The notes: generated by a model from the sequence alone, not told the origin. 52,764 nucleotides of DNA from a virus (IMGVR_UViG_3300036851_000303:1-52764); one strand, 5' to 3'; shown: positions 516 through 50,767, counted from the first letter of the stretch. Translations and numbers: made by a program.

Positions 516-540
516 CGCTTATTGTGATGTGGGGAGATTG

Positions 541-774
541 CTACTCGGGCGAATTGCCAGCTGTCGCCGCAGCGACCGGATTCGGCTCACGCATTGCGAC
601 CCGGCCCCGACCGCCGCGCGACACCTGGCCCCCCTTGCGACCGGCGATCCGGGCTTCTTCGGGTGTCCACTCGTGGGCGTTGCCTTTCTGGTGGGCGGCA
701 CGACCCCCCTTGGCTGCGATCTCCCGTTGCTTGTCTCGACTCATTGACGCAAATCCGCGGTCACGTACGCTCAT
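541..774 (-). CDS. KGG-repeat general stress protein
   Basis: RGFASMSRDKQREIAAKGG...AHEWTPEEARIAGRKGG is the stress-induced KGG motif. AGGAGG RBS upstream. Confidence 0.85.
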   Translation of the reverse strand: MSVRDRGFASMSRDKQREIAAKGGRAAHQKGNAHEWTPEEARIAGRKGGQVSRGGRGRVAMREPNPVAAATAGNSPE

Positions 775-812
775 TGTCTGTTCCTCCTTTGTTATCTAGG
801 CCTGTGGGGCAA

Positions 813-935
813 TCATTTCAGCCACAGAATCATGGCACCGGCAATAATCATTGTTACGATGAACCCGAGATAGACCCATCCACTGTGCTGCTCCGTGTCG
901 GGCGGGTTGTCATTGCCGCGCAAGATGCTACTCAC
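813..935 (-). CDS. small single-TM membrane protein (40 aa, not in ORF track)
   Basis: GTG 935 overlaps the upstream TGA. Translates MSSILRGNDNPPDTEQHSGWVYLGFIVTMIIAGAMILWLK. Confidence 0.6.
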   Translation of the reverse strand: MSSILRGNDNPPDTEQHSGWVYLGFIVTMIIAGAMILWLK

Positions 936-1240
936 GGCTCTCGCTCCGCACCACCTGTCAGTGATTCGTCAGGATCGGCTTGCTTGACGTGCTTGCCGGC
1001 AACCCGCGCCGCATCCACCTCGTAAATCTTGACGTGCGTGCCGACTTCCCAGTACCGCTTGCAGTGGGGACACTGGAAAAAGTAGAAGAAATCGCCGTCG
1101 AAGTGGCAATGCGCCCCGCACGCACAGTGGATGTCGCAGCACACGTCGGTGCCCTTCCACTGAATCCAGATGTGGGGCTGGCCCTCAAATTGGGGGCTTT
1201 CAATATCGAGATGTGAAGGCGGATGTTTGTAGTCGCTCAT
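932..1240 (-). CDS. Cys/His-rich hypothetical protein (zinc-binding)
   Basis: IQWKGTDVCCDIHCACG...CPHC. ATG 1240 overlaps the upstream TGA. Confidence 0.7.
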   Translation of the reverse strand: MSDYKHPPSHLDIESPQFEGQPHIWIQWKGTDVCCDIHCACGAHCHFDGDFFYFFQCPHCKRYWEVGTHVKIYEVDAARVAGKHVKQADPDESLTGGAEREP

Positions 1241-1449
1241 TTGGCTCGCTCCGCACCACCAGGAGAGATTGAAATAACCGACGGCGCCGCGAATCGCAGA
1301 AGCGCGCCGCAAATGGGACAGCATCCGCCGTGAAGCTGCTGCGACACTGAGCCCGGAAAGACGAATACGCCACAGCGACAATGACGGCCGATCCGGCGAA
1401 TCCGCCGCTCGGTGATAGCCCGCCGTAGGCCGACACGCGGAATCTTCAT
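1237..1449 (-). CDS. small zinc-ribbon hypothetical protein
   Basis: AGGA RBS, CRCG...CPICG. Confidence 0.5.
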   Translation of the reverse strand: MKIPRVGLRRAITERRIRRIGRHCRCGVFVFPGSVSQQLHGGCCPICGALLRFAAPSVISISPGGAERAK

Positions 1450-1471
1450 GGCTGTCCTTCCTGCTTCTCGC

Positions 1472-2014
1472 TCATGCCGCGTCACCAGGAGAGGGGGGTA
1501 AAGGCATCCAATGGGTGGGCTCTGGCTCATGTTCCCGTCGAAGCCTCCCGTAAAGCACCCAATCGTTATCCGTATGAAAGTAACCAACCGTGAACCGATG
1601 ACGCCCGGCGTAGGGCACGGCCAGCAGCACCGTTTGTGGACCGACATATGTTGCTATCGGCAACCACGGGCCGATCCCGGCCTGGGGGGACGCCTGAGGT
1701 TTGGTTCCGTGGCTGGGATCGATAAAGCATGCCGCAATGTGCCCCGTGTCTTGATGCAGTTCAGGCGCGATGCACCAATCGGGTTCCTGTGGGGCCTGGG
1801 GGGCCGCAAGGGCGGCTTCCTGGAGCATTCGTTCCAACTCCTTCAGAACCGACGGTGTGATAGACGGGCTGTTGCCGACATGCTGCCCGCCCTTGCCGCG
1901 TGCCTCGATCAGTGCCCGTTCACGAGACACGAACTGCGACAAACGCTCGATCAACTGGGCCTGCCGCTGGGCCGTCATAGGGATCACAGAAGGGATCACA
2001 CCCTTGTCGGACAT
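1472..2014 (-). CDS. hypothetical protein with DUF551-like C-terminus
   Basis: C-terminal PTHWMPLP motif. The start may instead be ATG 1978. Confidence 0.6.
   Translation of the reverse strand: MSDKGVIPSVIPMTAQRQAQLIERLSQFVSRERALIEARGKGGQHVGNSPSITPSVLKELERMLQEAALAAPQAPQEPDWCIAPELHQDTGHIAACFIDPSHGTKPQASPQAGIGPWLPIATYVGPQTVLLAVPYAGRHRFTVGYFHTDNDWVLYGRLRREHEPEPTHWMPLPPSPGDAA
1980..2003 (+). repeat. integrase arm-type sites, left of core (GGGATCACAGAAGGGATCACACCC)
   Basis: Tandem GGATCACA pair, nearly identical to 2187-2210, flanking the tRNA-like core. Confidence 0.7.
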
Positions 2015-2059
2015 TCAATCCCCCCAGACAACATTAGCGCGTACCCGCCCCCCGCGTTG

Positions 2060-2109
2060 CCTGCCTTGGGCGCAGGGGGTCGCTGGTTCGAATCCAGTCG
2101 CCCCGACCA
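2060..2109 (+). mobile_element. attP core: 3' half of tRNA-Pro(TGG)
   Basis: Anticodon arm CCTGC-CTTGGGC-GCAGG, T-arm GCTGG-TTCGAAT-CCAGT, and CGCCCCGACCA end. No 5' half or D-arm. Lies 300 bp downstream of int. Confidence 0.9.
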
Positions 2110-2186
2110 AATCACCAGTTTCCCGCGCCAATCGATCACGACCGCCCCACATCAGGATACTGGTGGTTACGGCGGGTTCCGAAAAG

Positions 2187-2210: not shown

Positions 2211-2412
2211 GCTCCGGGTCCGTTGGCAGTCCCCGCTTGATGCCCCACAGTAGTTGATACGCCTCTCCGTGGTCCGCGTCGATCTTGATACTCATAGAAC
2301 TGCCTTCGTGGTCCTCACGTTCGAGGAACTGGAGCGCGTGTCCGACATGGGGCGTAACCAATGTGAGATGCGTCTCGCCGTCCACGGCACTGATTTGTAC
2401 CAGAATGTTCAT
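2203..2412 (-). CDS. small hypothetical protein between int and attP
   Basis: ATGA overlap with the int stop; MNILVQISAVDGE... Confidence 0.55.
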   Translation of the reverse strand: MNILVQISAVDGETHLTLVTPHVGHALQFLEREDHEGSSMSIKIDADHGEAYQLLWGIKRGLPTDPERV

Positions 2413-3509
2413 ACCCGCTCGAACGGCACCACGACACTCGTCGCGTCCACCGCCTCCTCCTCCACCCTGACCACCGCTTTCACGCTCGCCCTGATTCCAA
2501 GGTCCACGCGATCCATCGCGTCCCGAAGATCGTCCTTCAGCAGATGTGCGTAATGACGCTCCGTCACCGCGACCCCCGCGTGCCCGAGGATCTTGCTCAA
2601 CTTGTAAATGTCTCCACCGCTTTTCAAGTACCGCCACCCGAATGTGTGCCGCATGGTGTGCGGCCCGAGGTGCGGGATGCCGGCGCGTACCGCCGCCTCG
2701 CGAATCACTTCACGCAACCTCTGAGGGTTCTGCGTCCAGAGCTGCCCATCGTCGTCGAGCTGCTGTTGCAGCATCGGTACCAACTCAGCGGGAATCGGCA
2801 CCGTGCGCGTCTTCGAGAACTTGCCCGTCACACGGACAAAGCGTTGAGGAAGGTTAAGATCCGTCGATGCAATACCCCGGCACTCGTCAAGTCGGACACC
2901 GGTACCGAGAAGAAACAGTACGAAACGCTGGAACCGCGGGGACAGTCGTGCGAGGAGGTTCTTCTGCTCGTCGTCCGTGAGGAGCCGTTCGCGGACGGTG
3001 TACGCTTTGCGCTCGATGCCTTTCCACGGGTTCGTGATCTCGTGCCCATCTTCAATCGCCTGCTGCCACAACGCTTGTAGGAAGCTCCGTTCGCGCTGGA
3101 CCGTGTCCTCGCTGATCTTCCCGGGGGTTTTCCGCTTTGGGTTCGCCTGCACGTCGCCGCGCCGCTTGTTCAGATACCGCAGGCAGTCCGTCTTTTTGAT
3201 CTGGTCGAGCGGTGTACTTGGCCCGAAGAACGGCAGCGCGTGTGCCATGATCTGGCGATCCCGCTCGGGCGCCGCCTTCTGACTGCTGTACGTTTTTTCG
3301 TAGAGCGTCCACCACCCACCCAAGGTAGGTACTGTTTTCGTCCACCCGTGCTTGCCCGAGCGGATCTCCGTTTCGAGTTCGGACGCGCGGTGCGCGGCGG
3401 CGTCCTTTGTCCTCTGAGTCGCCACCGGGAATCCGGTCGACAGACGGTACAGCTCCCCCAGGATCTTCTTCTTGAAGTACCACACGCCGCCTCTTTTGAT
3501 CAGGGCCAC
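2409..3509 (-). CDS. int: tyrosine integrase
   Basis: TGVR, GK, HTMRH, LGH and a catalytic Y (TERHY). GTG 3509 follows an AGGGGG RBS. Adjacent attP. Confidence 0.95.
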   Translation of the reverse strand: MALIKRGGVWYFKKKILGELYRLSTGFPVATQRTKDAAAHRASELETEIRSGKHGWTKTVPTLGGWWTLYEKTYSSQKAAPERDRQIMAHALPFFGPSTPLDQIKKTDCLRYLNKRRGDVQANPKRKTPGKISEDTVQRERSFLQALWQQAIEDGHEITNPWKGIERKAYTVRERLLTDDEQKNLLARLSPRFQRFVLFLLGTGVRLDECRGIASTDLNLPQRFVRVTGKFSKTRTVPIPAELVPMLQQQLDDDGQLWTQNPQRLREVIREAAVRAGIPHLGPHTMRHTFGWRYLKSGGDIYKLSKILGHAGVAVTERHYAHLLKDDLRDAMDRVDLGIRASVKAVVRVEEEAVDATSVVVPFERV

Positions 3510-3693
3510 GACGTTTCCCCCTTTCCATCCAGCGGTCGAGTTCCATTCTGTTGAAGTGAATTCGACCGTCCTCACTGCGAACGAAGGGAATCTTATTCCG
3601 ATGCACCAGCAACTTGATCGCGCCAGGCGTGCGATCGATGTAGCTCGCGCACGTTGTCACGGTGAGCCACATCGGCCACTCGGAAATCGGCAT
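3052..3693 (-). CDS. xis: excisionase-like HTH protein (N-terminal ~60 aa; frame runs on into int)
   Basis: WLTVTTCASYIDRTPGAIKLLVHRNKIPFVR..GRIHFNRMELDRW resembles HTH_17/Xis. Directly upstream of int. Confidence 0.7.
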   Translation of the reverse strand: MPISEWPMWLTVTTCASYIDRTPGAIKLLVHRNKIPFVRSEDGRIHFNRMELDRWMERGKRRGPDQKRRRVVLQEEDPGGAVPSVDRIPGGDSEDKGRRRAPRVRTRNGDPLGQARVDENSTYLGWVVDALRKNVQQSEGGARAGSPDHGTRAAVLRAKYTARPDQKDGLPAVSEQAARRRAGEPKAENPREDQRGHGPARTELPTSVVAAGD

Positions 3694-3695: not shown

Positions 3696-4079
3696 TTAGT
3701 TGTCGTCCCGCTTCGACCCCGGCACCAAGGGCACATCGTTCACAGGATCAGGATTCAGCACCACCCCGCGCTGTACCAAACTCCGCCCCTGCTCGTCCGT
3801 GATCTCCAGTTGCTCGAAATTGACCCCGAATGCCCGCCCCGCTTGCGTAATGACCGCGCCTAACCCGATGCCCGCCTGCGCGAGCCGCTTCGTCACTTGT
3901 GCAAACACCACCATCTGGGCCTGCGGACTCTCCAGCCCTTCCGTCCCACCGACCCATGCGTTGTACTTCCGCTCCACGAGCGCAATAATTTCCCTGAGCA
4001 TTCGCTGCTCATCCGGCCCTTGCTCGTGGTCTTCCGGGTTCACGACGCCACCTTCGTCGCTGCCCTTATTCGTCGCCAT
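3696..4079 (-). CDS. hypothetical protein
   Basis: 127-aa ORF packed in the operon, GGAG RBS. Confidence 0.7.
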   Translation of the reverse strand: MATNKGSDEGGVVNPEDHEQGPDEQRMLREIIALVERKYNAWVGGTEGLESPQAQMVVFAQVTKRLAQAGIGLGAVITQAGRAFGVNFEQLEITDEQGRSLVQRGVVLNPDPVNDVPLVPGSKRDDN

Positions 4080-4659
4080 TGGTCAGATTTGCTCCATCCC
4101 CGGCGTCTACTTCTAAGAGATGCTTGAACCGGGTCAGCAGCTCTCGTTCGTACCGGTCCCGCCAGTACCCGGCCGGCATCTCCCTAATCTGATGCCGCAT
4201 TTCGGTGACGATCTTCGCCGCCTCTCCTTGGGCGCCTGTGTTGATGTAGTTCTGGATCTGCCGAGTGGCCGTCTCGAAGATCCCCAGGAACTCGATGTTG
4301 TTCTCCTCGGCGGCGAGCAGATCGCGTATCGCATCGATCCGCCGCATCATTGAGGGGATCTCGGCGCGGCGTTCGAGATCGCGGCAGGCGCGGTCAATCG
4401 CGTACCGCACGATGTCGTTGGTCGAGCGGAAGGGGAACTTCTGACTCCGCAGGACGTTGTTCAGCACGGGCATGTACTGCGGGTGGACGCGCAGGGAGAC
4501 GCGCTCGGAGTGCCCGTGGCTGTCCTTGATGGGGATGAGGAACGAGCGTTCGGTCAGCTCCTCATGTGCAGTTTCGATGCTTGAGCGAACAGAATTGTGA
4601 TCTTCTGATGTGGGGTGATGCGTCCCCCGGAGACGTGGTGTGGCTAGCCCGTTCGCCAT
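4066..4659 (-). CDS. ribbon-helix-helix DNA-binding protein, candidate repressor
   Basis: ERVSLRVHPQYMPVLNNVLRSQKFPFRSTNDIVRYAIDRA fits the RHH strand-helix-helix pattern. Long helical C-terminus. Confidence 0.6.
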   Translation of the reverse strand: MANGLATPRLRGTHHPTSEDHNSVRSSIETAHEELTERSFLIPIKDSHGHSERVSLRVHPQYMPVLNNVLRSQKFPFRSTNDIVRYAIDRACRDLERRAEIPSMMRRIDAIRDLLAAEENNIEFLGIFETATRQIQNYINTGAQGEAAKIVTEMRHQIREMPAGYWRDRYERELLTRFKHLLEVDAGDGANLTNGDE

Positions 4660-4665: not shown

Positions 4666-5139
4666 CTACAATCCTTGTGATTCGCGGGGAAGACGCCGAC
4701 GACGCCGGTAAACTCGCGCCCTGAGAGTCGAGTCTGCTGGTCGCACCGTGGGATCGGCCGCGTCGACTGTTCGCAAAGGCTGTGCCACCCGGACCCAATC
4801 CGCCATCTCGAACACCTTGCGACGTTGGCGGATGTGAGCTTCGAGCGTACGATCCAGCCGACCTGCCCGCACCCCGACGTGCTCGAAACGGGGATCTTCC
4901 CCATTTGCGCGCCGGGACCACACGTAGTAGAGCTTGTGCAAGTTCCGCCATTCGTTTCGGGTCCAGCCACCGCGATCGATAGCGGCTTCGAGGCGAAGAA
5001 GGAAGGCACGGGCGGAGGAGTGGTCGCCAGGACCGCATACAGGGGCGGTGCCACCAAGCATGGGCCAGTACGCCGCGGACCAGAAGCCGGGGCGGGTGGT
5101 GCGGTCCTGTTGATCGCCGCGCTCGGCGCAGACGCTCAC
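4666..5139 (-). CDS. hypothetical protein
   Basis: GTGA overlap with the stop of 5136..5603. Confidence 0.55.
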   Translation of the reverse strand: MSVCAERGDQQDRTTRPGFWSAAYWPMLGGTAPVCGPGDHSSARAFLLRLEAAIDRGGWTRNEWRNLHKLYYVWSRRANGEDPRFEHVGVRAGRLDRTLEAHIRQRRKVFEMADWVRVAQPLRTVDAADPTVRPADSTLRARVYRRRRRLPRESQGL

Positions 5140-6778: not shown

Positions 6779-6842
6779 AGGGGTCTAGATGCCTCCTGTG
6801 ATGTGGGGAGATAGCAAGGGACGGGCCATACTAAGCACGAGC

Positions 6843-7228: not shown

Positions 7229-7659
7229 TCTTCCCAACCGGCCGCGTTGTGCTTGTGGTACCGTCCGTGGCCTTTCGGGAGGGTGCAACGCATTCCCGAT
7301 AATGTGGCGTCGCACTGATCGTCCGTCGTGGTGCCGTCGATGCGGGCGAGCAGGACGCGAGCGTCTGTCTGCCAATCGCCCGGTATGTCCACCTGATCGG
7401 GGTCTGCGTCTGCGATAGCTTGCAGTAGCTCGCGCATCTCCGGCGCGGCTGCAATCAGGCGGGCGTTGGCCTGCCCTTCGGGATGCGTCAACAGGTGGCG
7501 CGTCCAGTCCTCGCGCACTGTGAACACAACGGGATCATTGCAGTGAATCGGCCGATGGTCAGTCACGAGTTGTAAATCGCCTTCATGTGCGCCCGTTCCG
7601 GTATTGACCGTCGTGCGTCCCCAGCTCCACGGCCCCGGCGTATGCTTCGCTGCACTCAT
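7225..7659 (-). CDS. HTPGPW...ANARLIAAAP-type phage protein
   Basis: Both motifs present; a common small phage family of unknown function. Confidence 0.75.
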   Translation of the reverse strand: MSAAKHTPGPWSWGRTTVNTGTGAHEGDLQLVTDHRPIHCNDPVVFTVREDWTRHLLTHPEGQANARLIAAAPEMRELLQAIADADPDQVDIPGDWQTDARVLLARIDGTTTDDQCDATLSGMRCTLPKGHGRYHKHNAAGWEE

Positions 7660-7988
7660 ACTCCCCCCTTCCGTACCGCCTCCAACAATTCCCTGACCCG
7701 TACCGGCACACTGCCCGGTAGCTCCAGATCAATGCCCTTCAGGTACCCCATATCCAGCCACCATTCGACGACTCTGAGCAGCTCGACGCCCGCTTCGTAC
7801 AAACTCGGTGCGCACGCCATCATCCGCCCGTTCGCGTCGTGCTCAGTCGGGAGTGTGTACGGTGTCACATGATCGATGTGCGCCAAAGGAACGGTCAACG
7901 CGCGATCGGCGTAGATCGTTCCGGCGCTGTAGTACCACGGCCCGTGTGTAAATCCGGCCTGATGTGGGGAGATAGGCGTTTGCGCCAT
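7656..7988 (-). CDS. paralog of the HTPGPW/ANARLIAAAP family
   Basis: FTHGPW...DANGRMMACAPSLYEA. Confidence 0.7.
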   Translation of the reverse strand: MAQTPISPHQAGFTHGPWYYSAGTIYADRALTVPLAHIDHVTPYTLPTEHDANGRMMACAPSLYEAGVELLRVVEWWLDMGYLKGIDLELPGSVPVRVRELLEAVRKGGV

Positions 7989-8611: not shown

Positions 8612-8637
8612 CGTTGCCTCCTGATGTGGGGAGTTAC

Positions 8638-9174: not shown

Positions 9175-9472
9175 CGTCGTCCTCCTCCTCCTCCTCGTAC
9201 ACTGGCGCGCAGCACTCGCCGGCCTCTTCCGCCGTCCGATGGTCCTGCCCGCATTCGTGGCACTTGTACCGCCGGCCATTCGGGCACCCGTGTTCGTGTG
9301 TGGCGTGACCGTTGACCGCGAGTGCTTCACACTGTGAGCACCCGATCTGAATAGCGAACTCCTGATCGGACGGGTCAACATCGTCGGTATAGTCGGCCGA
9401 CGCAATCTCGGAATTGTCGAACCCGCGATCGATCAGACTGTCGAGCAGGGCGTGTGCTTTGGCGGCGTTCAT
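9161..9472 (-). CDS. acidic zinc-finger hypothetical protein
   Basis: CSQC..HEHGC..CHEC, poly-acidic tail (DNA-mimic-like charge). Confidence 0.7.
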   Translation of the reverse strand: MNAAKAHALLDSLIDRGFDNSEIASADYTDDVDPSDQEFAIQIGCSQCEALAVNGHATHEHGCPNGRRYKCHECGQDHRTAEEAGECCAPVYEEEEEDDDATE

Positions 9473-9954
9473 GACTGTTCACCTGATGTGGGGAGAATGA
9501 GCCGCGCGAAACGATACATGAGCCGATCGCGCGGCTCGTCGTACGACTCCTCGATCTGTTCCGTTAGAACGTGGTGAAACGTTTCCGAGAGGCAGTCCTT
9601 GATGTCGTTTCGATTGCGGCCTGTGATCGTCAGGTCAACTTGGCCTATGAACGATGGGCGAGCTGTGATCGTGTGCTCCGTCCATCCGTCGTACATCCCG
9701 CCATCGTTCATATGGTGAAATGACGCGTGGATAACGATCTTCTCCTCAGTGCACTCGTCAAGGTCAATCGTGCACCCCGAGTCGATACCCGAGCCGGAAG
9801 GTAGTACGTCCTTACACATCCGCTCAACAGCATCGGCGTGCTTATTGAGCCATTCCGTATTGCCCGATGCCTTGCAGCGGTGATAGGCGCCGATGGCGCC
9901 AGCCAGGAGCTTGTACAGCGGCTCGACTCTGGATCTACCTGCGACAGCGGTCAT
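9469..9954 (-). CDS. conserved-looking phage hypothetical protein
   Basis: LPSGSGID...FHHMNDGGMYDGWT; GGAGG RBS. Confidence 0.75.
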   Translation of the reverse strand: MTAVAGRSRVEPLYKLLAGAIGAYHRCKASGNTEWLNKHADAVERMCKDVLPSGSGIDSGCTIDLDECTEEKIVIHASFHHMNDGGMYDGWTEHTITARPSFIGQVDLTITGRNRNDIKDCLSETFHHVLTEQIEESYDEPRDRLMYRFARLILPTSGEQS

Positions 9955-10122
9955 GGTGCCTCCCGTACCTGATCTGATGTGGGGTGATACTCTACCGTAC
10001 CAGCTCCGACAATGGCGCGCGTACACCCCTAGTGCGCGCAGCATCGGCGGCCGAGTCGATTGCTCGGCCGAGTGTGTAGATCATGGCGACTGTGAAGATG
10101 AGTAGCGCGAGGAAGAGGCGCA

Positions 10123-10392
10123 TCACTCCACCCAGTCAGCGCAACCCGCGTCATTTAGATCGCACGTCACTAAGCCCTGGTCCATTCGCGTGAATGCATC
10201 AGTCCACAGCTCGTCGCGTTGAAGGGCGGTCGTTGGACGTGCAGTGATTACTAGCTCGTGAATGTCCCCCGGCCAGTGCTTGCCGCGCGGCGCAGCGATA
10301 CGGATCGTGAACACAGACCCGGTCTGTTCCCATTCGACAGAGGCGCCGATGCGCTCAGCCTCTCTGTAAACCGCGTTCTTGGGGAACCTCAT
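10123..10392 (-). CDS. first leftward (early) hypothetical protein
   Basis: GGAGG RBS, MRFPKNAV... Confidence 0.65.
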   Translation of the reverse strand: MRFPKNAVYREAERIGASVEWEQTGSVFTIRIAAPRGKHWPGDIHELVITARPTTALQRDELWTDAFTRMDQGLVTCDLNDAGCADWVE

Positions 10393-10496
10393 ATCGCCTC
10401 CATCTGGGATCCCGGGATCTAATCTATACCTCAATCGTCCCACATCAGACCCCTGCAGTACGTGTACCTCCCCACAATCGTCCAAACACTAGCATA

Positions 10497-10525
10497 ATCA
10501 TTGCCTCCAACCGTCCTATCGTCAA
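10497..10525 (-). promoter_or_regulatory. leftward early sigma70 promoter
   Basis: TTGACG-17 bp-AATGAT at the head of the leftward arm. Motif-1 variants at 10439 and 10468 just downstream. Confidence 0.6.
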
Positions 10526-10801
10526 CCCTTTGACGCTGTTCTACCGGGTTTCCCCGCGTCCGAACGCGTAACCGCCTGCTGCTCAACGACTTAGCATGGT
10601 GTCGGAATACCGACACTCCAAACGCCAATATCGTCAACATATTGACGCTTCTACCTCATCCGTAGGGCGCACAGGGATCACACGTACGCGAGCCGACACC
10701 CAATATCGAGCGAATCACTCAGCGTTCGGCCCAAGGTTCGCGCCCATGTCGGGCGCAGGGGGGCGAGGGGCGGGGGGACCCCCCGGCGATGTGACTCCGA
10801 C

Positions 10802-10836
10802 TCGACCGGGGTGGGGGTGTCCCGGTCGAATTTTTT
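10802..10836 (+). terminator. GC hairpin plus T-run
   Basis: TCGACCGGG...CCCGGTCGA followed by ATTTTTT. Confidence 0.55.
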
Positions 10837-10861
10837 GTAGGAGGATACGGTCGGGCTACAG

Positions 10862-10970
10862 TGGGTATCTGGGTATCGGGATCAGGGGGATCTAGGACTA
10901 GGGATCAGGGAATCAGGGATCAGGTACCTAGGGGGATCCGGGATCGGGGATCACTGCCACCAGGGATCTA
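10862..10970 (+). repeat. cluster of short GGGATC/GGGTATC direct repeats (candidate pac or origin iterons)
   Basis: Repeated GGGATC(A/T)G units in non-coding DNA upstream of terS. Confidence 0.5.
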
Positions 10971-11220
10971 ATAGGGTACGTCAGTCATATATAAGTACAA
11001 GAAGGAGAACAGGATCTACGATTGGGAATCCCGGGCGAGTACGTGGGTACCGGGGGGTACGGGGGACGGAGGGTGTGGGAGGGTGCGAGGGTGGAGCCGC
11101 GGTCCTCTGGTACCCCAGGATGGGCAACGCGAGGAGGATGCGCGCAGTAGGCGCCCCGAGGTCCGGTACCGCAGCTCCGACTCCTAGTCTACCACCATCT
11201 CCCCACATCAGACCCTACTC

Positions 11221-11235
11221 TGGTATGATTCTTGC
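11221..11235 (+). promoter_or_regulatory. rightward promoter for terS (extended -10 TGnTATGAT; also fits sigma54 TGGTATG-N4-TTGC)
   Basis: TATGAT ends 6 nt before GTG 11236, suggesting a leaderless mRNA. Motif 1 at 11201 sits in the -35 region. Confidence 0.5.
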
Positions 11236-12009
11236 GTGGAGCAGTACGCGAACCTCCTATATCCCGATCCCCGCGAAGGTCAGGGTCGTACCGTACTGGG
11301 GGGTACGGGGGGTACGCGAAACCCCTCTAATCAGGGGGTTTCGTCACACACGTGGTCCCGCCCCCGGCGCAAGCTCCCGCCTGAGCCCCCCAACGCTATC
11401 CCGGTATCGCAGATCCCCGACGCGCTCCTCCCCCCGGATCCCGGTCCCGCGTCCGAGCTGGTGAAGGTCGGGGAAGTGTGCGGGTACGAGGTCCACGCGC
11501 GGCGTACGGTAGTCGAGCAGGCGGCTCGGTTCCAAGAGGCGCTTGGGAAGGACCGCTGGCCCGGTGATGCACTGCTGGCAACGATCATGGCGCTCCGCAT
11601 CGGGATCAAGCCCACCCCCACCTACCGCGAGATCGCGCGGATGCTCAATATGTCCGAGCGGCATGTCCTCCGCATCGCCAAGCGCGGGAAGAAGGATCAA
11701 GTCGTCGAGCGGGAACTCAATCGGCTCGATCGCGAGGGGCTCCCGATGGCGGTCGAGAACGTGCTCGAAGGGCTGCAGGAGCGCGACAAGGACTACACGC
11801 TGGAGTACCTCAAAGGCCGCGGGGTGTTCCGGCAGAAGCACGAGACGGTACAAGACCCGAACGCGGTCGCAGCCTTCACCGGGCTCGTGGTGCAGTTCGT
11901 CCACGACGGGAGCGCCGCAGAGATCAAGGCCGGCGCCATCATCGCCAACCCGAATCGCGCCCTGGCGCCGGTACCAGCGGCGGTACGTACCCCGGACTCG
12001 CGTGAGTAA
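11236..12009 (+). CDS. terS: terminase small subunit (HTH)
   Basis: HTH TYREIARMLNMSERHVLRI; directly upstream of and overlapping terL. Confidence 0.7.
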   Translation: MEQYANLLYPDPREGQGRTVLGGTGGTRNPSNQGVSSHTWSRPRRKLPPEPPNAIPVSQIPDALLPPDPGPASELVKVGEVCGYEVHARRTVVEQAARFQEALGKDRWPGDALLATIMALRIGIKPTPTYREIARMLNMSERHVLRIAKRGKKDQVVERELNRLDREGLPMAVENVLEGLQERDKDYTLEYLKGRGVFRQKHETVQDPNAVAAFTGLVVQFVHDGSAAEIKAGAIIANPNRALAPVPAAVRTPDSRE

Positions 12010-16841: not shown

Positions 16842-16883
16842 TTGTAGCCGTTACCCCAACCCGGCCAGATAGAGCGTTCGTAG

Positions 16884-17778: not shown

Positions 17779-17801
17779 CCTAGCAAGTATCGTGCCAGAA
17801 T
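17773..17801 (+). promoter_or_regulatory. rightward sigma70 promoter overlapped by a reverse sigma54 consensus
   Basis: TTGCAT-17-CAGAAT on +; TGGCACG-ATAC-TTGCT on -. Confidence 0.55.
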
Positions 17802-26841: not shown

Positions 26842-26868
26842 ACGGCGGATCAATCTCCCCACATCACA

Positions 26869-35830: not shown

Positions 35831-35970
35831 GCCGCGCATTCTACACCCGTTAGTATGGTCGAGTTGCACCCTCGTAGCGGATACCCCAACCCGGCCAGAT
35901 AGAGTCGAGCTGTAACCTCCCCACATCAGGATCGTTGACGGCATGAGCCTTGCGACTAGGCCGAACACCC

Positions 35971-36831: not shown

Positions 36832-37673
36832 TCGAATCGACCGTCCAGTACATGGACAAGCTCGCAGGGCGGATGCGACCAAATGAACATCCCATGACCT
36901 CGGGGATGGTGTACGGCGAGCAGGCGAAGTACGTCTCGTGGCAGATCCCCGACAAGAAGTTCTCGTCGATCGAGCTGATGCAGATTACCGATGTGCAGTT
37001 TGGGCACGTTACCACCAAATACGATCGCGTGATCGAGTACAGGGATTGGGTGCTCGCAAAACCCAATCGCTTTATGTTTTGGACAGGGGACAATGTCGAC
37101 GCGTGGGCTCTCTGGTCGCCAGGCCGCGCCTTCGACCAGATCGCTGATCCGCAGTCCCAGGTCTATAAGTTCTGCGAAGTGTGGGCGCCCGCGCGCCACC
37201 GCATCCTTGGGTACGTTGGCGGCAACCACGAGCGTCGGGCGATCCCCGCGTTTGGCGACCTCGGTACCCTCATCGCGACCCTGCTGAAGATCCCGTACTC
37301 CAACGGGCGGCAAATCATCGACATCTACTTCGGCAAACACCAACCGTTCCAGACGATGCTGTGGCACGGGGTCGGTGGCGCGCGCACCAAGGGAACAGTG
37401 GCGCAGATCCTCTCCCGGTTCATGGCGCACGGGAACGCGCACCTGTACCTCATGGGGCATGTGCATCAGCCCTTGGTGCTACCACTGTGGAAGGAGGTCG
37501 CGGACCCTGCTCGACACCGGGTGCAGTTGCGGAAGTCAATCGGGGTCGTGGGTAGCTCGTTCATGGAGACGTGGAACAGCTACGGCGAGATTTCGGGGTA
37601 TGGCGCGAGCGACGTACTGATGGGGAACGCGCGGTTGGAGAACACCGGTAAATGGGAGGTAAGCCTCCGATGA
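36771..37673 (+). CDS. calcineurin-like metallophosphoesterase
   Basis: TDVQFG, GDNVD, GNHE, WHG, GHVH motifs. Confidence 0.85.
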   Translation: MASTQLRTTKKTGNKRFEDLIESTVQYMDKLAGRMRPNEHPMTSGMVYGEQAKYVSWQIPDKKFSSIELMQITDVQFGHVTTKYDRVIEYRDWVLAKPNRFMFWTGDNVDAWALWSPGRAFDQIADPQSQVYKFCEVWAPARHRILGYVGGNHERRAIPAFGDLGTLIATLLKIPYSNGRQIIDIYFGKHQPFQTMLWHGVGGARTKGTVAQILSRFMAHGNAHLYLMGHVHQPLVLPLWKEVADPARHRVQLRKSIGVVGSSFMETWNSYGEISGYGASDVLMGNARLENTGKWEVSLR

Positions 37674-38017
37674 GGTATCTCCCCACATCACTCTTCCTGT
37701 TGGCGCTCCTCGCGACGCCTGCCGCGGCGCAGACCATTGACGCCGGCTCCGAGGTCGGCCGCGTGTTCAACGTCGCCGACGGTACCTACGTCCGTGCCGT
37801 ATCCCTTAATCTCACGATCGCGTTCGGCGACGTCTACATCTCCTCGACCAACTACTTCGAGAACGGCTCCCGCTGGTTCGAGCACGACTTGATGTGGGGG
37901 TGGGAGAAGACTCGGGGGCGCGTTACCTTCTCCGCCTCTGGCGGGTACTTCATCTGGCGGTACGGCATCAAGGATTGGTCCGGGTCGCTTGGGTTCCGTG
38001 TGCGCCTCCGTGAATGA
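37670..38017 (+). CDS. secreted beta-strand protein (outer-membrane-like)
   Basis: Signal peptide LFLLALLATPAAA-Q; amphipathic aromatic strands. Confidence 0.65.
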   Translation: MRYLPTSLFLLALLATPAAAQTIDAGSEVGRVFNVADGTYVRAVSLNLTIAFGDVYISSTNYFENGSRWFEHDLMWGWEKTRGRVTFSASGGYFIWRYGIKDWSGSLGFRVRLRE

Positions 38018-40827: not shown

Positions 40828-40979
40828 TTCTCCTTCCGCAGTCGCCGAATAAGTGCTCGTTGCTCGTTGATCGTTGCCAAGAGGCGCACGAGCACGGAAA
40901 CCGCTACCCACTGTGACTCACTCTGTTTCGTGGCAACGATTTTCTCGGCAACTGCTTCCGCCAATTTCCGTGAAATCAC
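40824..40979 (-). CDS. small hypothetical protein
   Basis: GTGA overlap with the pol stop. Confidence 0.5.
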   Translation of the reverse strand: MISRKLAEAVAEKIVATKQSESQWVAVSVLVRLLATINEQRALIRRLRKEK

Positions 40980-42256
40980 ACTTCCCCCCACGTTTGGCCC
41001 TGGCTGGAGCCAGAGCACGTAATCGGTACCGCGAACATCTGGTACTCCGCGAGCGCCTCCTTGATTTCCATATCCAAGATGTCGTACGCCCACGTCTCGA
41101 ACTCGAACAGCAGTGCGTCGTGCGTGGGCAGCAGCAACTCTACCCAGATCCCCGCGGCACGCATTTTCTCGATCCGCTGCCACACGCTCCCCATCCATAG
41201 CCGGAAGATGTCGGCCGCCCCTGACTGAATCGGCGTCGCCTGGGCTTGGCGGAGTGCCTCCGCCTGTATCTGCTCGTTCGGGCTGTTCGCGGCCGGGAGC
41301 CAGCGACGGCGTCCCCGCCAGTTGGTGACGTAGCCGTACCGCTTTGCCTCTAGGTGCTTGCCCTCGATGTACTGCGCGCACCCCGGGTATCCCTTCATCC
41401 ACTCGTCGATGAAGGCGTCGCACGCTTCTACTGTCGTCTGCATTCCGTTCTTGAGGAGCTGGCCGGCGAGTCCGTTCCCGGTGATCCCCATGAGGATCCC
41501 GAAGTTGACGGCCTTGGCCGTGAACCGTTCGTGCTTGGTGATGTCGTCGATGGGCTTCTTGTAGATAACGTTTGCCGCAGTGGCTTTGTGCTTGTCGACC
41601 CCGGAGTTGATCTCGGCGATCATCAGCTCATCGCCTGAGTCGAACGCCATCACCTTCATCTCGACTTGGTCTAAGTCCCACTCGGCGAGACAATGACCAT
41701 CTGCGGGCACGAACCCATGCCTGACAAGCAGCCCAAGATCCGAATGTTTAGGGAACGCCAGAACATTAGGGTCTTTTGCCGCGAGGCGTCCTGTATCAGT
41801 CCGTGTGTACAGGATGCGCGCGTGAAGTCGACCATCGGTGCCGAGCAGTTCGAGCATGGGGTCCGCATAACGAGTCTTGAGGGTGTCGATCTCCCGCCGC
41901 TTGAGGATCTTGTCGATCGCGCCTTTGACTTCGGGGCGCGTCTTCGGGTCTTTACTGATGGCTTCAAGGTATTTGTCCTGTGTTGACCCCCGCCCCGTCT
42001 GCGTGCGCTTCTTCGCCCGCGCGTGGAGCTGGCGGTAGATCCAATCCGCGACCTGATCGCTGCTCCCGGGGTTCTCGGGGCCGCCCATCGCGTGGATCTC
42101 GGTGTCGAGGTCGGAGCGGAGGTCGCCAAGGTAGACGGAGAGGTCGCGGAAGTGGGCGAGATCGGCGAGGAGTCCTACGTCCTCCATGCGGCGGATGATC
42201 GGGAGGAGGCCCGCGTCGGATTCGGCGAGAGACCACGGGAGGCGGGGGACGCTCAA
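40976..42256 (-). CDS. polA: DNA polymerase family A, polymerase-domain gene
   Basis: TGRL, motif A DLDQVEMK, motif B RFTAKAVNFGILMG, QSGAAD, motif C THDALL. TTG start after AGGGAG overlaps the upstream TGA. Confidence 0.9.
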   Translation of the reverse strand: MSVPRLPWSLAESDAGLLPIIRRMEDVGLLADLAHFRDLSVYLGDLRSDLDTEIHAMGGPENPGSSDQVADWIYRQLHARAKKRTQTGRGSTQDKYLEAISKDPKTRPEVKGAIDKILKRREIDTLKTRYADPMLELLGTDGRLHARILYTRTDTGRLAAKDPNVLAFPKHSDLGLLVRHGFVPADGHCLAEWDLDQVEMKVMAFDSGDELMIAEINSGVDKHKATAANVIYKKPIDDITKHERFTAKAVNFGILMGITGNGLAGQLLKNGMQTTVEACDAFIDEWMKGYPGCAQYIEGKHLEAKRYGYVTNWRGRRRWLPAANSPNEQIQAEALRQAQATPIQSGAADIFRLWMGSVWQRIEKMRAAGIWVELLLPTHDALLFEFETWAYDILDMEIKEALAEYQMFAVPITCSGSSQGQTWGEV

Positions 42257-43491
42257 TCGAAGCACTCCCTCAGCTTGAAGAACACCCTCCGCGTCGCGTC
42301 CGCGTCCGCACACGCGTAGGAGAGCACGTCCTCGAACGGCACATCGTCGAGCGTTGCGACCGGCATCTCGTACGGGCCAACCGCCTCATGAATCCCAGGT
42401 TGCTGGTCTCCCCAGAGCGCCCGCGGTCCTCGGGGCGACTTCAGACACCGCTGCACCGCTTTCCACACGGGGTGCTTCTTCTCTTTCGGGTGCGCGGGGG
42501 AGAATAGATCCTCAATTTGTTCGAGGAACGATGCCGCGAGCCGCTCGTTCGCCGGCCCCACCAGATCCTCGTAGTCCCGCATCCGCATCCCGCACAGCCG
42601 GTACGCCAGGGTCTTGAGCCCCTGCGGGAGCCGGCCGGCGAGATACGCGAGCTGCATCGTGTCGAGGACTTGTACGCGGCTCGGGTCGATGTGGACGCCC
42701 ATCGCATCGAGGACGCGGAGATCGTGGGGGGCGTAGTGCATGACGACGGTGGGGCGGTACTCGTCAATCGACCGCTGAAAGCACGCGAGGCTCTTGGGCG
42801 ACGTGGCACGAATCAGGGTAGCGTGCCGCATGTGCCCCGAGAACGTCAGGCACCACGGGTGCTCGACGCTACCCTCGGTGTCGATGGTGACGACGCCGTC
42901 CGCGAACTGCGGGTGACGATCAATCAGTCCGGCGTCGCTCTGCCACGAGTAATAGACGGGGCCGGTGTCGACCGTGTGCAGCGCGAGGTCGCCCCGCAGG
43001 TACCGCGCCAACGCTTCAAAGTCCCGCACCGTCAGCGCGTAGAACTCGGGCTGATGAAGCCCCGCCGCTGGGTGATGCACCGGCACCACCGTCCCTTCCC
43101 ACCGCGCACCCTGGTACTCCACCGAGGCGTGGTGTGGTAGTCCCCCGCACAGCTCCATGCTGGCCCACGGGCCGAGGAAGTAGCGGGTACTAATCAGCCC
43201 GAGGGGAACGATGACCTCCGGCCCCGCCCCGACGATCTCGCCCCAGAGGTCCGCGAGGTCGCGCTCGATCTCCTCCGGTTTGGGGTCGCGGTTGTTCGGG
43301 GGGCGCTCGCGACAGACGTTGGTGATGAAGACGTCGTCGCGCTCCAAGCGGCATGTGCGGCGGAGCCAGTAGTCCAGCTCGTTGCCGGCTTTGCCGACGA
43401 AGGGGATGCCGCGCTTGGCCTTTTCCTCGCCAGGCGCTTCTCCAACGAGCATCACGCGGGCCATTGGGTTGCCGACGCCGTCAACCCTCAT
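42253..43491 (-). CDS. uracil-DNA glycosylase (family 4-like) fused to 3'-5' exonuclease (N-terminal half of polA)
   Basis: [23 protein letters not shown]; ExoI IDTEG, ExoII HYAPHD, ExoIII YACAD. Confidence 0.9.
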
Positions 43492-43678: not shown

Positions 43679-44216
43679 GAACGTCGGACGGGATACCGTC
43701 CTTGATCCACACCATCCACGCGCACGTCACCGAATCGGTCTTCCCGTTGCCCGTGAAGGAGATCCGGGGAAGGACAACTAGGTGCGTCGGTGGAAAGGTG
43801 TGCAAGAACTCAGCGCGGTTCGCGACCGGTTCAAGGAACGAGAGCCGTAGGAGCATCGCGACGCCGAGCCGCGCGTGTTCGTACGCGAGGGGGACGATCT
43901 GATGCGCGCGAGAGAACGGTGGGTTCGAGACAGCCCAATCGAAGACACGCGGTACGTCGCCCGATCGCGGGTCGTATAGCCCGAGCTGCCACCACTGCAC
44001 GTCGGCCGCGTCCTCGTGTGTGTCAGCCGGCATTGCGGGGTCGATGTCGTTCGTCGCGACGTCGCATCCGTGGCAGATCAGCGGAACTGCGATATTCCCT
44101 GAGCCGGCGCACGGCTCCAGTACGCGATGATGTGGGGAGATGGGTACGCGTTTCAGCAGTTCCGCGACCGCACTCTCAGGCGTGAAGTACTGGTCGTGCT
44201 TCCTACGTGGCGACAT
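43656..44216 (-). CDS. amino-DNA methyltransferase (NPPF)
   Basis: DQYFTP, LEPCAGSG (SAM binding), NPPF, LLRLSFLE. Confidence 0.9.
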   Translation of the reverse strand: MSPRRKHDQYFTPESAVAELLKRVPISPHHRVLEPCAGSGNIAVPLICHGCDVATNDIDPAMPADTHEDAADVQWWQLGLYDPRSGDVPRVFDWAVSNPPFSRAHQIVPLAYEHARLGVAMLLRLSFLEPVANRAEFLHTFPPTHLVVLPRISFTGNGKTDSVTCAWMVWIKDGIPSDVHVVPRAR

Positions 44217-48750: not shown

Positions 48751-49001
48751 GAGCAGAACCTCCGCACGTTGTAGAACGCTTCAGAGACGTCGGGGTTGTT
48801 GATGTAGCGGAGCAGGAGCTTCTCGGCTTCCTCACGCATCGGATCGGTGTTGATGGTGTCCTCTGCCACGATGGCGAGCATCTGGAGTTGCTCGATCATG
48901 TCGTCACGCCGAACCGGTGTGAGCACGTCGTTGAGGTACGCCAGTCGCCGCTGATCGCTCAACTGCTCCCAGGCTTCCCGCGCACGGTCCCGTCGCGCCA
49001 C
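48747..49001 (-). CDS. hypothetical protein
   Basis: Operon packing. Confidence 0.6.
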   Translation of the reverse strand: MARRDRAREAWEQLSDQRRLAYLNDVLTPVRRDDMIEQLQMLAIVAEDTINTDPMREEAEKLLLRYINNPDVSEAFYNVRRFCS

Positions 49002-49007
49002 CGCGGC

Positions 49008-49175
49008 TTATCGCTCCCCGCGGTCGAGAATCCCAACAGTCGAGCTTTGCATCGCTTCACCGGTAGCAGGAACTTCGATAGTGGCGGACGGGCTGAACGG
49101 GGTCGCCATGTCGTCGCAGGCCGCCGTCATCAGAGCGCCGAGGATGATGAGCACGTAGAAAAGTGGTGTTCGCAT
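49008..49175 (-). CDS. small putative lipoprotein
   Basis: MRTPLFYVLIILGALMTAACDD lipobox; GGGAG RBS. Confidence 0.65.
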   Translation of the reverse strand: MRTPLFYVLIILGALMTAACDDMATPFSPSATIEVPATGEAMQSSTVGILDRGER

Positions 49176-49202
49176 TGTTGTTACTCCCAGTAATCTCAGT
49201 TT

Positions 49203-49236
49203 GAAAAACGGGGCGGAGTTTCTCCGGCGCCGCCCC
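49203..49236 (-). terminator. intrinsic terminator inside the leftward arm
   Basis: GGGGCGG...CCGCCCC followed by GTTTTTC on the minus strand. Confidence 0.65.
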
Positions 49237-49424
49237 TCACCGTCGCGTGTTCTCTTCTTCAACCCCGGTTTGTCGGGTCACGCAGTTTGGTATGCGGGCG
49301 GGCGGAGCGAACCCCGCACCCCGTTGCCGTACCCCAACCCGGCCAGAAAGAGCAGCTCCGGGGGATACCGCCCGCACAAATTCGATTTCAGTCGCGTAAA
49401 GCAACTGAAATCGTTACTTTCCGT

Positions 49425-50327
49425 CTACGCAGCCGGCGCGAGCGTCACCTTCGTCCCGTCGAACGCCACTGTTCCCACCATCGCGTCGCCCTTCATCACC
49501 GGGGCGCCGACGATGGTCGGGAGGAACTCGCTGGCATTCTGCGAGAGGAGCTTCGTCGCGTTGAGACGATTCGGGTTCTGCGACAGGATACGGAACGAGA
49601 GCGGGCCGAGCTTGGCCTTCTCGACTGCACCCGCGTTCTTGTCGTCGGCGAGGAGCTGCACGACGGCGTCGAGGGCGGCATCGCGGGCGCCGTTGTCGGC
49701 CATCGGGCCGCCAGCAGCAGGAGTCGCGGTGCCCGGATTCGGGGCCGCACTCTTGGCAGTCGCCTTGGGCGCGGCCGTCGTTGCCGGTTTCACCGTGTTC
49801 TCCCACGGCAACGCGACGATCTGATCGACGAGCACGATCGTCCGCTCCTTCTTGCTGTCGTCCTTCTTCTGGCCCTCGACCATACGCGTCTTGTCTTGGG
49901 CCTCCGACCGCAGCTTGACCCGCATCCCCTCGAACACGCTCAGGTCGTCGCCGATCCGGTCCTGCGGGAACCCGCCCTGCCCTGACACATGCGGCGCGTT
50001 GACGATGGAGTTGACGAACTGCAACGCGTTCGAGTCCTTCGGCAGACCCTTCTTGTTGCCGAAGACCTTGAACCGCTTCCCGTCGTCACTCGGGATCCGG
50101 TGCTCGGGGTTGCCGGCGGAGTAGTGCTGAATGCGCGGCTGCTTGTCGGCCGCGAACGAGTCGACGTGGAACTGCACTGCGATGGCGGGGACGGCGGGTG
50201 TGACCTTGCCGTCGTAATCGGTCGTCGCGGCGCGGCAGGAAACGATGGTCGCCTCAACCCCGTCGAGATACGCGGAAACGTCGGCATTCCCGGGGAGAAG
50301 ACTTGCGTAGGTTGCGGTTTCGCTCAT
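49425..50327 (-). CDS. putative ssDNA-binding/replication accessory protein
   Basis: OB-like beta N-domain, Ala/Pro linker, highly biased codons, in the recombination module. Confidence 0.5.
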   Translation of the reverse strand: MSETATYASLLPGNADVSAYLDGVEATIVSCRAATTDYDGKVTPAVPAIAVQFHVDSFAADKQPRIQHYSAGNPEHRIPSDDGKRFKVFGNKKGLPKDSNALQFVNSIVNAPHVSGQGGFPQDRIGDDLSVFEGMRVKLRSEAQDKTRMVEGQKKDDSKKERTIVLVDQIVALPWENTVKPATTAAPKATAKSAAPNPGTATPAAGGPMADNGARDAALDAVVQLLADDKNAGAVEKAKLGPLSFRILSQNPNRLNATKLLSQNASEFLPTIVGAPVMKGDAMVGTVAFDGTKVTLAPAA

Positions 50328-50356
50328 GTGTGTGCGTTGCCCCTTCTAATAGACGG

Positions 50357-50767
50357 TCAGATGTTCTGATGTGGGGAGATAGCGACATCTGTGCCAACCT
50401 CCCCGGTTTCAACGAGAGACGGTGAGTCGGGCACCGGGATCTCGGGACTCGGGATCCCAGGATCTTCGGTGGTTTCTGGCCGGGTTGGGGTAGCGGCAGC
50501 ATCGGCGGGGGGTGCTGGCAGCACCATTGTGTCGCGCCCGCACCGGTTGCAGCGGAGCAGGTTGGCGATGACCCGCTGCATGTGTTTGACTGGCTTCAGG
50601 CGACCGCCGCACCCGCAGAAGTGGTGTCCAGCCTCGCGTGCGCGACGGATCGCGTGCGCTTCAGCGGCGTCGACCATGCGGCGGATACTGGCGTGCGCGC
50701 GGCGCCGTGCGAGTTGGCGACGGGCGGCAGCGTTCGCGGTGGAGCGGCGTTTGCGGCTAGCGGGCAC
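50357..50767 (-). CDS. zinc-finger hypothetical protein
   Basis: CGCGG..CNRCG, basic N-terminus and acidic C-terminus. Confidence 0.6.
   Translation of the reverse strand: MPASRKRRSTANAAARRQLARRRAHASIRRMVDAAEAHAIRRAREAGHHFCGCGGRLKPVKHMQRVIANLLRCNRCGRDTMVLPAPPADAAATPTRPETTEDPGIPSPEIPVPDSPSLVETGEVGTDVAISPHQNI

Follow-up and report, generated by a model that had tools for sequence, protein, structure and literature searches.

A polar 15-16-bp motif dispersed over an uncultured phage genome and its possible stoperator-like role

Results and Discussion

The window analysed here is the whole virus record IMGVR_UViG_3300036851_000303:1-52764, which has a length of 52,764 bp, a 127-bp direct terminal repeat, a completeness estimate of 100% and a G+C content of 62.7%. 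It was found to contain a dispersed and strongly oriented motif, the core of which is the 10-mer CCCCACATCA. When the C-rich strand of the motif is taken as sense, 17 of the 19 sites classed as strong or intermediate point in the direction of the local genes, and 16 of these 17 start at a distance of -60 to +80 nt from a start codon on the same strand. When sites were placed at random in 20,000 trials, 3.3 on average and at most 12 fell this near to start codons. It is possible, with a probability of about 0.4 in our estimate, that the motif represents the binding sites of a regulatory protein of the phage, with the DNA sites working as operators and as polar roadblocks, by analogy with the stoperators of the phage L5. 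A stoperator-like system had been proposed in an earlier reading of the same DNA made from the sequence alone (below, the sequence-only reading), and the statistics of orientation and distance to start codons given here bear out the polarity that it described.

Copy number and structure of the motif

The 10-mer CCCCACATCA occurs in 18 exact copies, 7 on the plus strand and 11 on the minus strand, at the positions listed in the sequence-only reading. In dinucleotide-preserving shuffles it occurred 0.18 times on average, the largest count was 2, and none of 100 shuffles reached 18. The same pattern read backwards has no copies in the window. A search with the 15-mer allowing up to three mismatches gave 20 matches, compared with 1.12 expected. 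Alignment of the 18 copies revealed that the information is confined to 16 asymmetric positions, ATCTCCCCACATCAG(R), and no conservation was found within 30 nt on either side of this 16-bp site. CCCCACATCA is therefore described here as the core of an asymmetric site of 15-16 bp. The motif is C-rich, with no A+T-rich stretch and no pair resembling -35 and -10 elements, and in mRNA sense it is a C-rich single strand devoid of G, AUCUCCCCACAUCAG.

A weight matrix built from the 18 copies gave 21 matches above 9 bits, while 20 mononucleotide shuffles gave 1-6. Seventeen matches were strong (at least 20 bits) and two, 10434(+) and 21883(+), were intermediate at 17-19 bits. The two others were weak, namely 35735(+) and 37888(-). 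The latter (37888-37903, minus strand) lies antisense inside the gene 37670-38017 and is a doubtful member of the set: it has the exact core at 37890, but its flanks are poor (13.7 bits versus at least 20 bits elsewhere), and it may be a weak or chance copy. A further variant, ACCTCCCCACAATCG, is located at 10466-10480. The other variants listed earlier stood in part, since 1169 is a copy with one mismatch on the minus strand, 14179 has two mismatches and 35739 is weak.

The motif was also found to be rare in DNA of the probable host clade, a point that the sequence-only reading had proposed to check. Five genomes of 4.8-6.8 Mb each, which carry the same tRNA-Pro as the phage attachment site and serve as clade proxies, not as the true host, contain 6, 10, 3, 9 and 10 copies. 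This amounts to 38 copies in 29.1 Mb, or ~1.3 per Mb, versus 341 per Mb in the phage. In 868 kb of tRNA-Pro flanks 2 copies were found, with 1.95 expected. As far as the proxies go, a motif of host type, such as a Chi-like sequence or a host promoter, was rejected on these counts.

Orientation and position of the sites relative to genes

The gene model, which is based on codon usage with start codons refined by eye from six-frame translations, comprises 74 genes, and scans against Pfam and/or PHROGs covered 68 of them, six small genes being outside the scans. The genes are arranged in two arms on the circular map, a leftward one running from ~10,500 via 1/52,764 to ~39,850 and a rightward one from ~10,600 to 39,850. 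The rightward arm holds a small reversed cassette (16,476-17,778), the first gene of which (17284-17778, minus strand) has a PHROG match with E 1.9e-17. Among the 18 exact copies 16 are co-oriented with genes, and the two exceptions are 2145(+) and 37890(-), as stated previously. The flip of orientation at the cassette proved to be real: the sites 17745(-) and 17966(+), with cores at 17747 and 17970, form a divergent pair 220 bp apart, and each member matches its own gene. Because of this pair in the reversed cassette, the orientation is considered to follow transcription and not the direction of the arm or of replication.

This result bears on the idea that the motif is a strand-specific DNA signal apart from expression, for example a signal for recombination or packaging or a sequence cut by a nicking HNH endonuclease. 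In phages with site-specific nicks the consensus sites are strand-specific, and two weak HNH-like matches were found in the phage, namely 63-515 with phrog_1271 (E 0.0066) and 16884-17291 with HNH_2 (E 0.0037). However, the orientation flips with the 1.4-kb reversed cassette and tracks genes, and the tie to start codons would be left without explanation, which makes such a signal very improbable.

Ten sites, or eleven with 33402, lie at junctions upstream of start codons, with 2 to 42 nt from the core to the start, and they are often located just past the stop codon of the preceding gene or inside its last codons. Three occupy the narrow space between stop and start. The site 523-538(-) (27.4 bits) lies between the stop of the gene 541-774 and the ATG at 515, with a 9-nt gap and no Shine-Dalgarno (SD) sequence; 26853-26868(+) (27.4 bits) lies between the stop at 26841 and the ATG at 26869, with a 2-nt gap and again no SD; and 8620-8635(-) (24.3 bits) is found between the stop at 8638 and the SD (GGAGG) of the ATG at 8611. 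Two sites overlap C-terminal tails, namely 9482-9497(-) (23.9 bits), in the gene 9469-9954 and 11 nt before the ATG at 9472, and 50365-50380(-) (28.8 bits), in the gene 50357-50767 and 39 nt before the ATG at 50327. Intergenic sites are 6797-6812(-) (27.4 bits, 20 nt before the ATG at 6778), 9973-9988(-) (26.3 bits, after a TAG stop and 20 nt before the ATG at 9954), the variant 21883-21898(+) (17.4 bits, upstream of the TTG at 21908) and 35915-35930(+) (25.4 bits, in the 260-nt region before the endolysin gene with its ATG at 35971). The site 11197-11212(+) (28.8 bits) is located upstream of the first gene of the right arm (11236-12009), likely the small terminase.

The seventeenth co-oriented site, 33402-33417(+) (25.0 bits), is in the middle of the frame of an 887-aa open reading frame (ORF), 21 nt upstream of an ATG (33437) that is in frame and has a strong SD. 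The segment 33390-33440(+) contains a perfect TATAAT, the motif, GGAGGGGG and this ATG, and it may represent an internal start for a shorter product.

The other six co-oriented sites are intragenic, at +7, +15, +18, +40, +75 and +78, all within the first 32 codons. They are 37677-37692(+) (24.4 bits, codons 3-8 of the gene 37670-38017, which encodes a signal peptide), 7958-7973(-) (27.7 bits, codons 6-10 of the gene 7656-7988, whose ATG overlaps the upstream stop), 17745-17760(-) (20.5 bits, codons 7-12 of the gene 17284-17778 of the reversed cassette), 4604-4619(-) (26.3 bits, codons 14-19 of the gene 4066-4659, encoding HHPTSE), 44126-44141(-) (22.7 bits, about codons 26-31 of a DNA-methyltransferase-like gene) and 17966-17981(+) (26.5 bits, at +78 in the low-complexity N-terminal region of the gene 17888-18844). 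Translated copies of the motif are read in two frames, giving peptides of the ISPHQ and LPTS types, and the overlaps correspond to N- or C-terminal tails of proteins. Since two reading frames are used, the conserved thing is the nucleic acid. Six-frame translations were in agreement with the junction positions and the multiple frames reported before.

Two sites, 2141(+) and 10434(+), together with the neighbouring variant 10466(+), are directed against the local genes. The first (2141-2156, plus strand, 21.5 bits) is located between the phage attachment site attP and the integrase gene, 36 nt downstream of the tRNA-Pro part of attP; it is co-oriented with the tRNA and opposed to the flanking minus-strand genes. 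The second (10434-10449, plus strand, 18.9 bits) is located within the leader of the early transcript of the leftward arm, against which it points. The variants 10434-10448 and 10466-10480 of the sequence-only reading are thus present, but opposed to the transcript that contains them.

The proximity to start codons, as well as the invariable presence of the motif in the sense strand of the adjacent gene, would also suit an element read in mRNA, through which a phage RNA-binding protein or RNA controls translation initiation or mRNA stability of ~16 genes. The eleven sites 2-42 nt upstream of starts, several of them directly against the SD or the ATG, speak for such a role, and the oriented start-associated repeats of Cluster K phages, absent from the host, provide a precedent (passages of PMC3203893). 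A translational repressor with multiple targets would be another comparable case. In addition, the leftward early leader would carry two imperfect complements of the motif with 10-11 contiguous pairs in a hand alignment. However, this leader folds no better than shuffled sequences (z -0.11), no Rfam matches were found in the window, and SD cores are used equally, by 5 of 16 motif genes and 18 of 57 other genes. The sites 2141(+), 10434(+) and 10466(+) are far from gene starts of the same strand, those at +40, +75 and +78 lie beyond what is generally given as the ribosome-covered initiation region, and sigma54-like promoters at 6797 and 50365 would leave most of the motif untranscribed. Taken together, a start-associated mRNA element is considered less likely than a site for a DNA-binding regulator.

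Antisense-RNA immunity of the P4 CI and P1 c4 type relies on a small structured RNA that carries the complement of repeated targets. Of these features the early leader has the two imperfect complements; its z value of -0.11 and the lack of an Rfam match were given above. A possible 183-nt rightward RNA also folded no better than shuffles. Pairing of the CUCC of the motif with a downstream SD was considered as well and dropped by eye, as an SD is present at some sites only and the stems have 4-5 pairs. A GGAG/GAGG/AGGA core is found 4-18 nt before the start in only 23 of the 73 modelled genes, and several well-supported genes, such as those starting at 26869 and 515, do not have it.

Another alternative is a phage promoter or start element read by the host RNA polymerase together with a sigma-like or appropriating factor of the phage that escaped detection; the 5' untranslated regions would then be short or absent. 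The co-orientation and the location 2-42 nt upstream of 11 starts could be reconciled with it. Late promoters of the phage T4 consist of a single short element without a -35 region, and phages sharing the 9469-9954 family have oriented promoter-like cassettes before most early genes (15 plus-strand copies in one locus, each then followed by an SD and ATG). On the other side, nothing is conserved up- or downstream of the 16 bp, and no RNA polymerase or sigma factor family was detected in the scanned genes, although most of the proteins belong to no family. A promoter function was ranked low because the C-rich motif has no A+T-rich part to melt and because six copies are located just past the start codon of a gene that they could not serve; it appears improbable. 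A YonO-like RNA polymerase was sought among the 859-aa and 887-aa ORFans and rejected, since neither contains a DxDGD-type motif and both look structural.

Proposed mechanism and control DNA around the sites

According to the reading of the motif as operator and roadblock sites, the regulator would be phage-encoded and sequence-specific, most likely a lysogeny repressor or its partner, and would bind the asymmetric 15-16-bp site as a monomer or a head-to-tail pair. A few sites would serve as operators, namely the two that abut sigma54-like -24/-12 elements and the two variants that flank the early leftward promoter. At the other sites, one per gene or gene group, the bound protein would halt RNA polymerase moving with the genes. 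The site next to attP would, in a lysogen, face read-through from the rebuilt host tRNA-Pro gene into the prophage. Binding by a protein, a DNA rather than an RNA target and the block of transcription are what we infer here. The presence of 2141(+), 10434(+) and 10466(+) in control DNA far from same-strand starts appears to favour a function at the DNA level, and the sites at 6797 and 50365, which abut sigma54-like elements, likewise seem to favour it over one at the RNA level.

The promoters mentioned here, and their overlaps with the motif, are consensus matches only. The sigma54-like consensus, which we take to be TGGCAC-N5-TTGC, gave 3 exact matches and 9 with at most one mismatch, compared with 2.96 expected; 1 of 100 shuffles reached 9. 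Seven of the nine are on the minus strand, including 4773-4787, 17783-17797, 30807-30821, 6814-6828, 50382-50396 and 51491-51505. The elements 6814-6828 and 50382-50396 directly precede the sites 6797 and 50365 and end exactly 1 nt before the motif. If they are promoters, the motif at these two places would span ~-11 to +4, which is an operator position and mostly untranscribed. The exact match 4773-4787 is located upstream of the gene 4066-4659, which holds the site 4604. Another exact match, at 17783, is 23 nt upstream of the site 17745; its reading as a sigma54 promoter is in conflict with the assigned ATG, since the transcript would then start past it. RpoN is present in all five host-clade genomes, and a gene for an activator ATPase was not found in the phage.

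The only good sigma70-like promoter (TTGACG, 17 nt, AATGAT; 10497-10525, minus strand) is at the head of the leftward arm, with 10434(+) and 10466(+) beside it. The variant 10466-10480(+) lies 17-31 bp from the -10 hexamer, and both sites are ~760-800 nt from the nearest rightward gene. The same control region (10380-11240) contains dyad repeats CGTCAA-N4-TTGACG at 10520 and 10632, which are operator-like. Farther to the right, a strong terminator with a 12-pair stem and a T run (10802-10829) was found ~400 nt before the first late gene; its placement recalls a late promoter with an antiterminated terminator. It is followed at 10860-10975 by consecutive GGGATC-type iterons, which may represent pac or ori.

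Search for the regulator

The sequence-only reading had proposed the product of the gene 4066-4659 (minus strand), a putative ribbon-helix-helix (RHH)-like protein, as the candidate regulator. This gene looks like the head of a lysogeny-module-like block, ahead of a 127-aa ORF and a tyrosine integrase gene (2409-3575, minus strand; family scan). Pfam and PHROGs gave no match for the protein, and its language-model neighbours, the NikA, MetJ and CopG clusters, were below the 0.9 bar and provide a lead only. AlphaFold modeling with 11 sequences led to a model of low confidence (mean predicted local distance difference test score, pLDDT, 67), with disordered residues 1-34, a strand-helix-helix segment and long helices. 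A Foldseek comparison of this model, the sole fold compared, with the PDB gave nothing better than E 0.4.

Ten homologues of the protein were found with identities of 48-73%, nine of which cover the otherwise variable N-terminal region. At the position aligned with the motif-encoded residues, 4 of the 9 have Pro-Thr-Ser, and 4 others have HTS, PTL, PPS or PTPS. This provides a lead that relatives may keep the motif inside the homologues of 4066-4659. More distant homologues (6 viral loci and 1 genome locus) showed neither the motif nor a repeated word at the equivalent place.

Another repeat may be relevant to this protein. GGATCACA has 7 copies, all on the plus strand, with 1.66 expected. Its tandem pairs at 1981-2000 and 2188-2207 flank the attP core at ~-70 and +80, in the manner of arm-type integrase or excision-factor sites; one copy is in the early control region (10675-10682), and others are at 28879 and 35579. 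If the product of 4066-4659 is RHH-like, the GGATCACA direct repeats would be at least as plausible a target as the 15-bp motif.

Several results weigh against operators and roadblocks. No helix-turn-helix (HTH), RHH or repressor family was detected in the scanned genes, and no binder was identified. A homologue of L5 gp71 was not found (the best tblastn match had E 0.034 over 26 residues on a non-coding strand), nor was one of gp47 or gp52 of the phage R4, two genes annotated as 'DNA binding protein'. This motif is lacking in the relatives identified by means of the capsid, terminase, RHH-like protein or 9469-9954 family, and no co-variation of protein and site was seen; conservation in related phages, which the sequence-only reading had proposed to check, was thus not observed among those examined. 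The Pro-Thr-Ser seemingly kept in homologues only 48-66% identical would imply a conserved specificity, unlike the fast-diverging immunity of Cluster A phages. In addition, the sites keep closer to start codons than a pure roadblock would need, the six intragenic sites in the first 32 codons also suit a role in translation, and the variant sites at the early promoter are opposed to the leftward transcript. As for the earlier statement that the phage has no CI-type repressor, it could not be established: no HTH protein was detected, yet the early promoter region has the two operator-like dyad repeats.

Comparison with known systems

Among the systems considered, the sites of Cluster A phages (L5, Bxb1, TipsytheTRex) are the closest. 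According to passages of PMC9283540 and PMC6550527, they are asymmetric, 13-14 bp long, present in 20-30 copies, oriented with transcription and located in promoters and short intergenic spaces. As described there, the repressor is a monomer with an HTH at its N terminus plus a Stoperator domain, and it stops elongation only when the site has one of the two orientations. With respect to these passages, the phage studied here is similar in having ~20 asymmetric copies genome-wide, a similar length (15-16 bp versus 13-14 bp), orientation with transcription, sites at short gene junctions and a temperate lifestyle with an integrase; its promoter overlaps are by consensus match. It differs in the absence of an L5 gp71 homologue, in the host phylum and in being an unrelated phage. 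In addition, one third of its sites are in first codons, unlike what those passages describe, and the stoperator role is proposed here by sequence analogy. The analogy drawn in the sequence-only reading holds for copy number, length, asymmetry, co-orientation, junction positions, temperate lifestyle and rarity in host-clade DNA; the defining protein and its activity are putative.

The Streptomyces phage R4 group, a second one with repressor-stoperator logic, is reported to have intergenic repressor sites that block RNA polymerase genome-wide (passages of PMC10276819). Its two 'DNA binding protein' genes have no match here, and the passages considered do not state which R4 gene acts as the repressor. 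In the coliphage T1 and the Citrobacter phage Stevie, 16-20 asymmetric 22-bp repeats, mostly intergenic and in one orientation with respect to transcription, have an unknown role (passages of PMC4319613); these phages are lytic and unrelated to the present one, and their repeat is longer and A+T-rich. For the asymmetric intergenic motifs of Nostoc phages, which number 21-43, a role as stoperators has been suggested (PMC4916379).

The start-associated sequence (SAS) of Cluster K phages is an asymmetric 13-bp repeat found in one orientation at gene starts and nearly absent from the host, with binder and function given as unknown in the passages of PMC3203893 considered here. According to the same passages, it contains the SD core, is located 3-7 bp from the start codon and is restricted to the non-structural half of the genome. 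The motif of the present phage resembles this description in its single orientation and near absence from host DNA (clade proxies in our case). Unlike it, the motif has no purine-rich SD, is found in both arms and ranges in position from -56 to +78 with respect to start codons.

The likeness to these systems allows a wider interpretation, namely that a genome-wide polar control evolved independently in a phage of Acidobacteriota. One regulator of non-Cluster-A type would recognise a 15-bp word at ~17 gene starts in both arms, serving as an operator at promoters of the sigma54 and sigma70 types and protecting against read-through from the host tRNA gene; or the word would be read in mRNA as a start-associated code. 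This interpretation is tentative. To our knowledge, polar genome-wide repressor sites are known experimentally only in actinobacteriophages, and none of the 24 papers listed by a full-text literature search for 'stoperator' deals with Acidobacteriota. The oriented repeats of other phages, such as T1 and the Nostoc phages, are still without explanation. If true, the present case would be a clear one in another phylum without a known repressor homologue, suggesting that prophage silencing of this type arose more than once, and a compact 15-bp protein-DNA (or protein-RNA) pair of high specificity would become available for study. For such repeats, the close association with start codons could help to tell action on transcription from action on translation. 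A practical limit is that both the host and the phage are uncultured.

Repeats in related phages

Relatives by the capsid protein were found at 3 viral loci (34-51% identity) and in none of the species-representative genomes, and neither the motif nor a comparable repeat was detected in the parts of them examined. The same applies to the parts examined of the capsid-bearing host-clade genomes (3 of 401). Three fragments of 1-1.7 kb related by the terminase contained no motif. In the 9469-9954 family (80 viral loci, 1.26 Mb) the core 10-mer was found once in each of 2 loci, and the C-terminal tails of the closest homologues do not contain the motif peptide. The protein of the gene 7656-7988 has no homologue besides itself. 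Among the matches listed for the exact 14-mer in viral and genome collections, single matches were judged to be due to chance, and two rows had 2. The two-copy patterns with fixed spacing were only an unrelated tandem repeat and an unrelated contig with 42.5% G+C, and both were rejected.

Two of the 80 loci of the 9469-9954 family bear dispersed repeats of their own. In L447 (3577-15510, plus strand) these are the 15 plus-strand copies of the promoter-like cassette of ~50 bp, each ending in an SD and ATG, and in L403 (922-9266) GTTAACCTTAA has 21 copies (15 on the plus and 6 on the minus strand), which are partly tandem. Words repeated at the junctions of early genes are therefore no rarity among uncultured phages; for long cassettes the usual reading is a promoter. 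A repeated word in another locus, L380, turned out to be an extended SD. In L385 (IMG/VR, 42,345 bp), which encodes a 34%-identical homologue of 4066-4659, TCCCCAC occurs 19 times in 20.4 kb (5 on the plus and 14 on the minus strand), with ~3.4 expected by a hand estimate, and is often extended to TGGTCCCCAC.

Phage genome, lifestyle and probable host

Family scans identified the large terminase, portal, major capsid protein, a split family-A DNA polymerase, helicase, an ERCC4-type nuclease, a methyltransferase-like gene and a lysozyme, while most phage proteins had no family match. The attP core (2052-2109, plus strand) corresponds to the 3' part of tRNA-Pro(TGG), the identity of which was assigned by eye; ARAGORN found no complete tRNA in the window. 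Because of the integrase and this tRNA-Pro part, the phage, which comes from soil, is temperate as judged from its sequence. A 50-base exact match to the tRNA part was found in at least 120 stretches of species-representative genomes, and among the 80 matches listed, most belong to metagenome-assembled genomes of Acidobacteriota/Vicinamibacteria, with a few under other labels. Capsid homologues are present in 3 of 401 sampled genomes of the same class, and in one of these, G252 (unpublished), seven structural genes are syntenic with those of the phage. On the basis of the tRNA-part matches and the capsid homologues, the host is probably an acidobacterium of the class Vicinamibacteria. No cultured relative was found, since the portal protein shares 30% identity with its best match in 50,697 phage records. 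In the probable source DNA run the phage was recovered in a single contig, and the motif sites showed no variants.

A second repeat of ~20 bp, TACCCCAACCCGGCCAGA, has 6 exact core copies without orientation bias, at 13999-14011(-), 16854-16866(+), 35617-35629(-), 35884-35896(+), 49332-49344(+) and 50478-50490(-). They form three inverted pairs, which flank the portal gene with one cassette gene, the region before the endolysin, and the gene 49425-50327; an invertase was not found in the phage. The family-A DNA polymerase (40976-43491, minus strand) is split into two overlapping frames, the upstream one of which fuses a uracil-DNA-glycosylase-like domain to the 3'-5' exonuclease domain. The gene 541-774 (minus strand) encodes a 77-aa protein with a KGG stress-protein repeat (Pfam E 1.1e-12), which is an unusual phage cargo.

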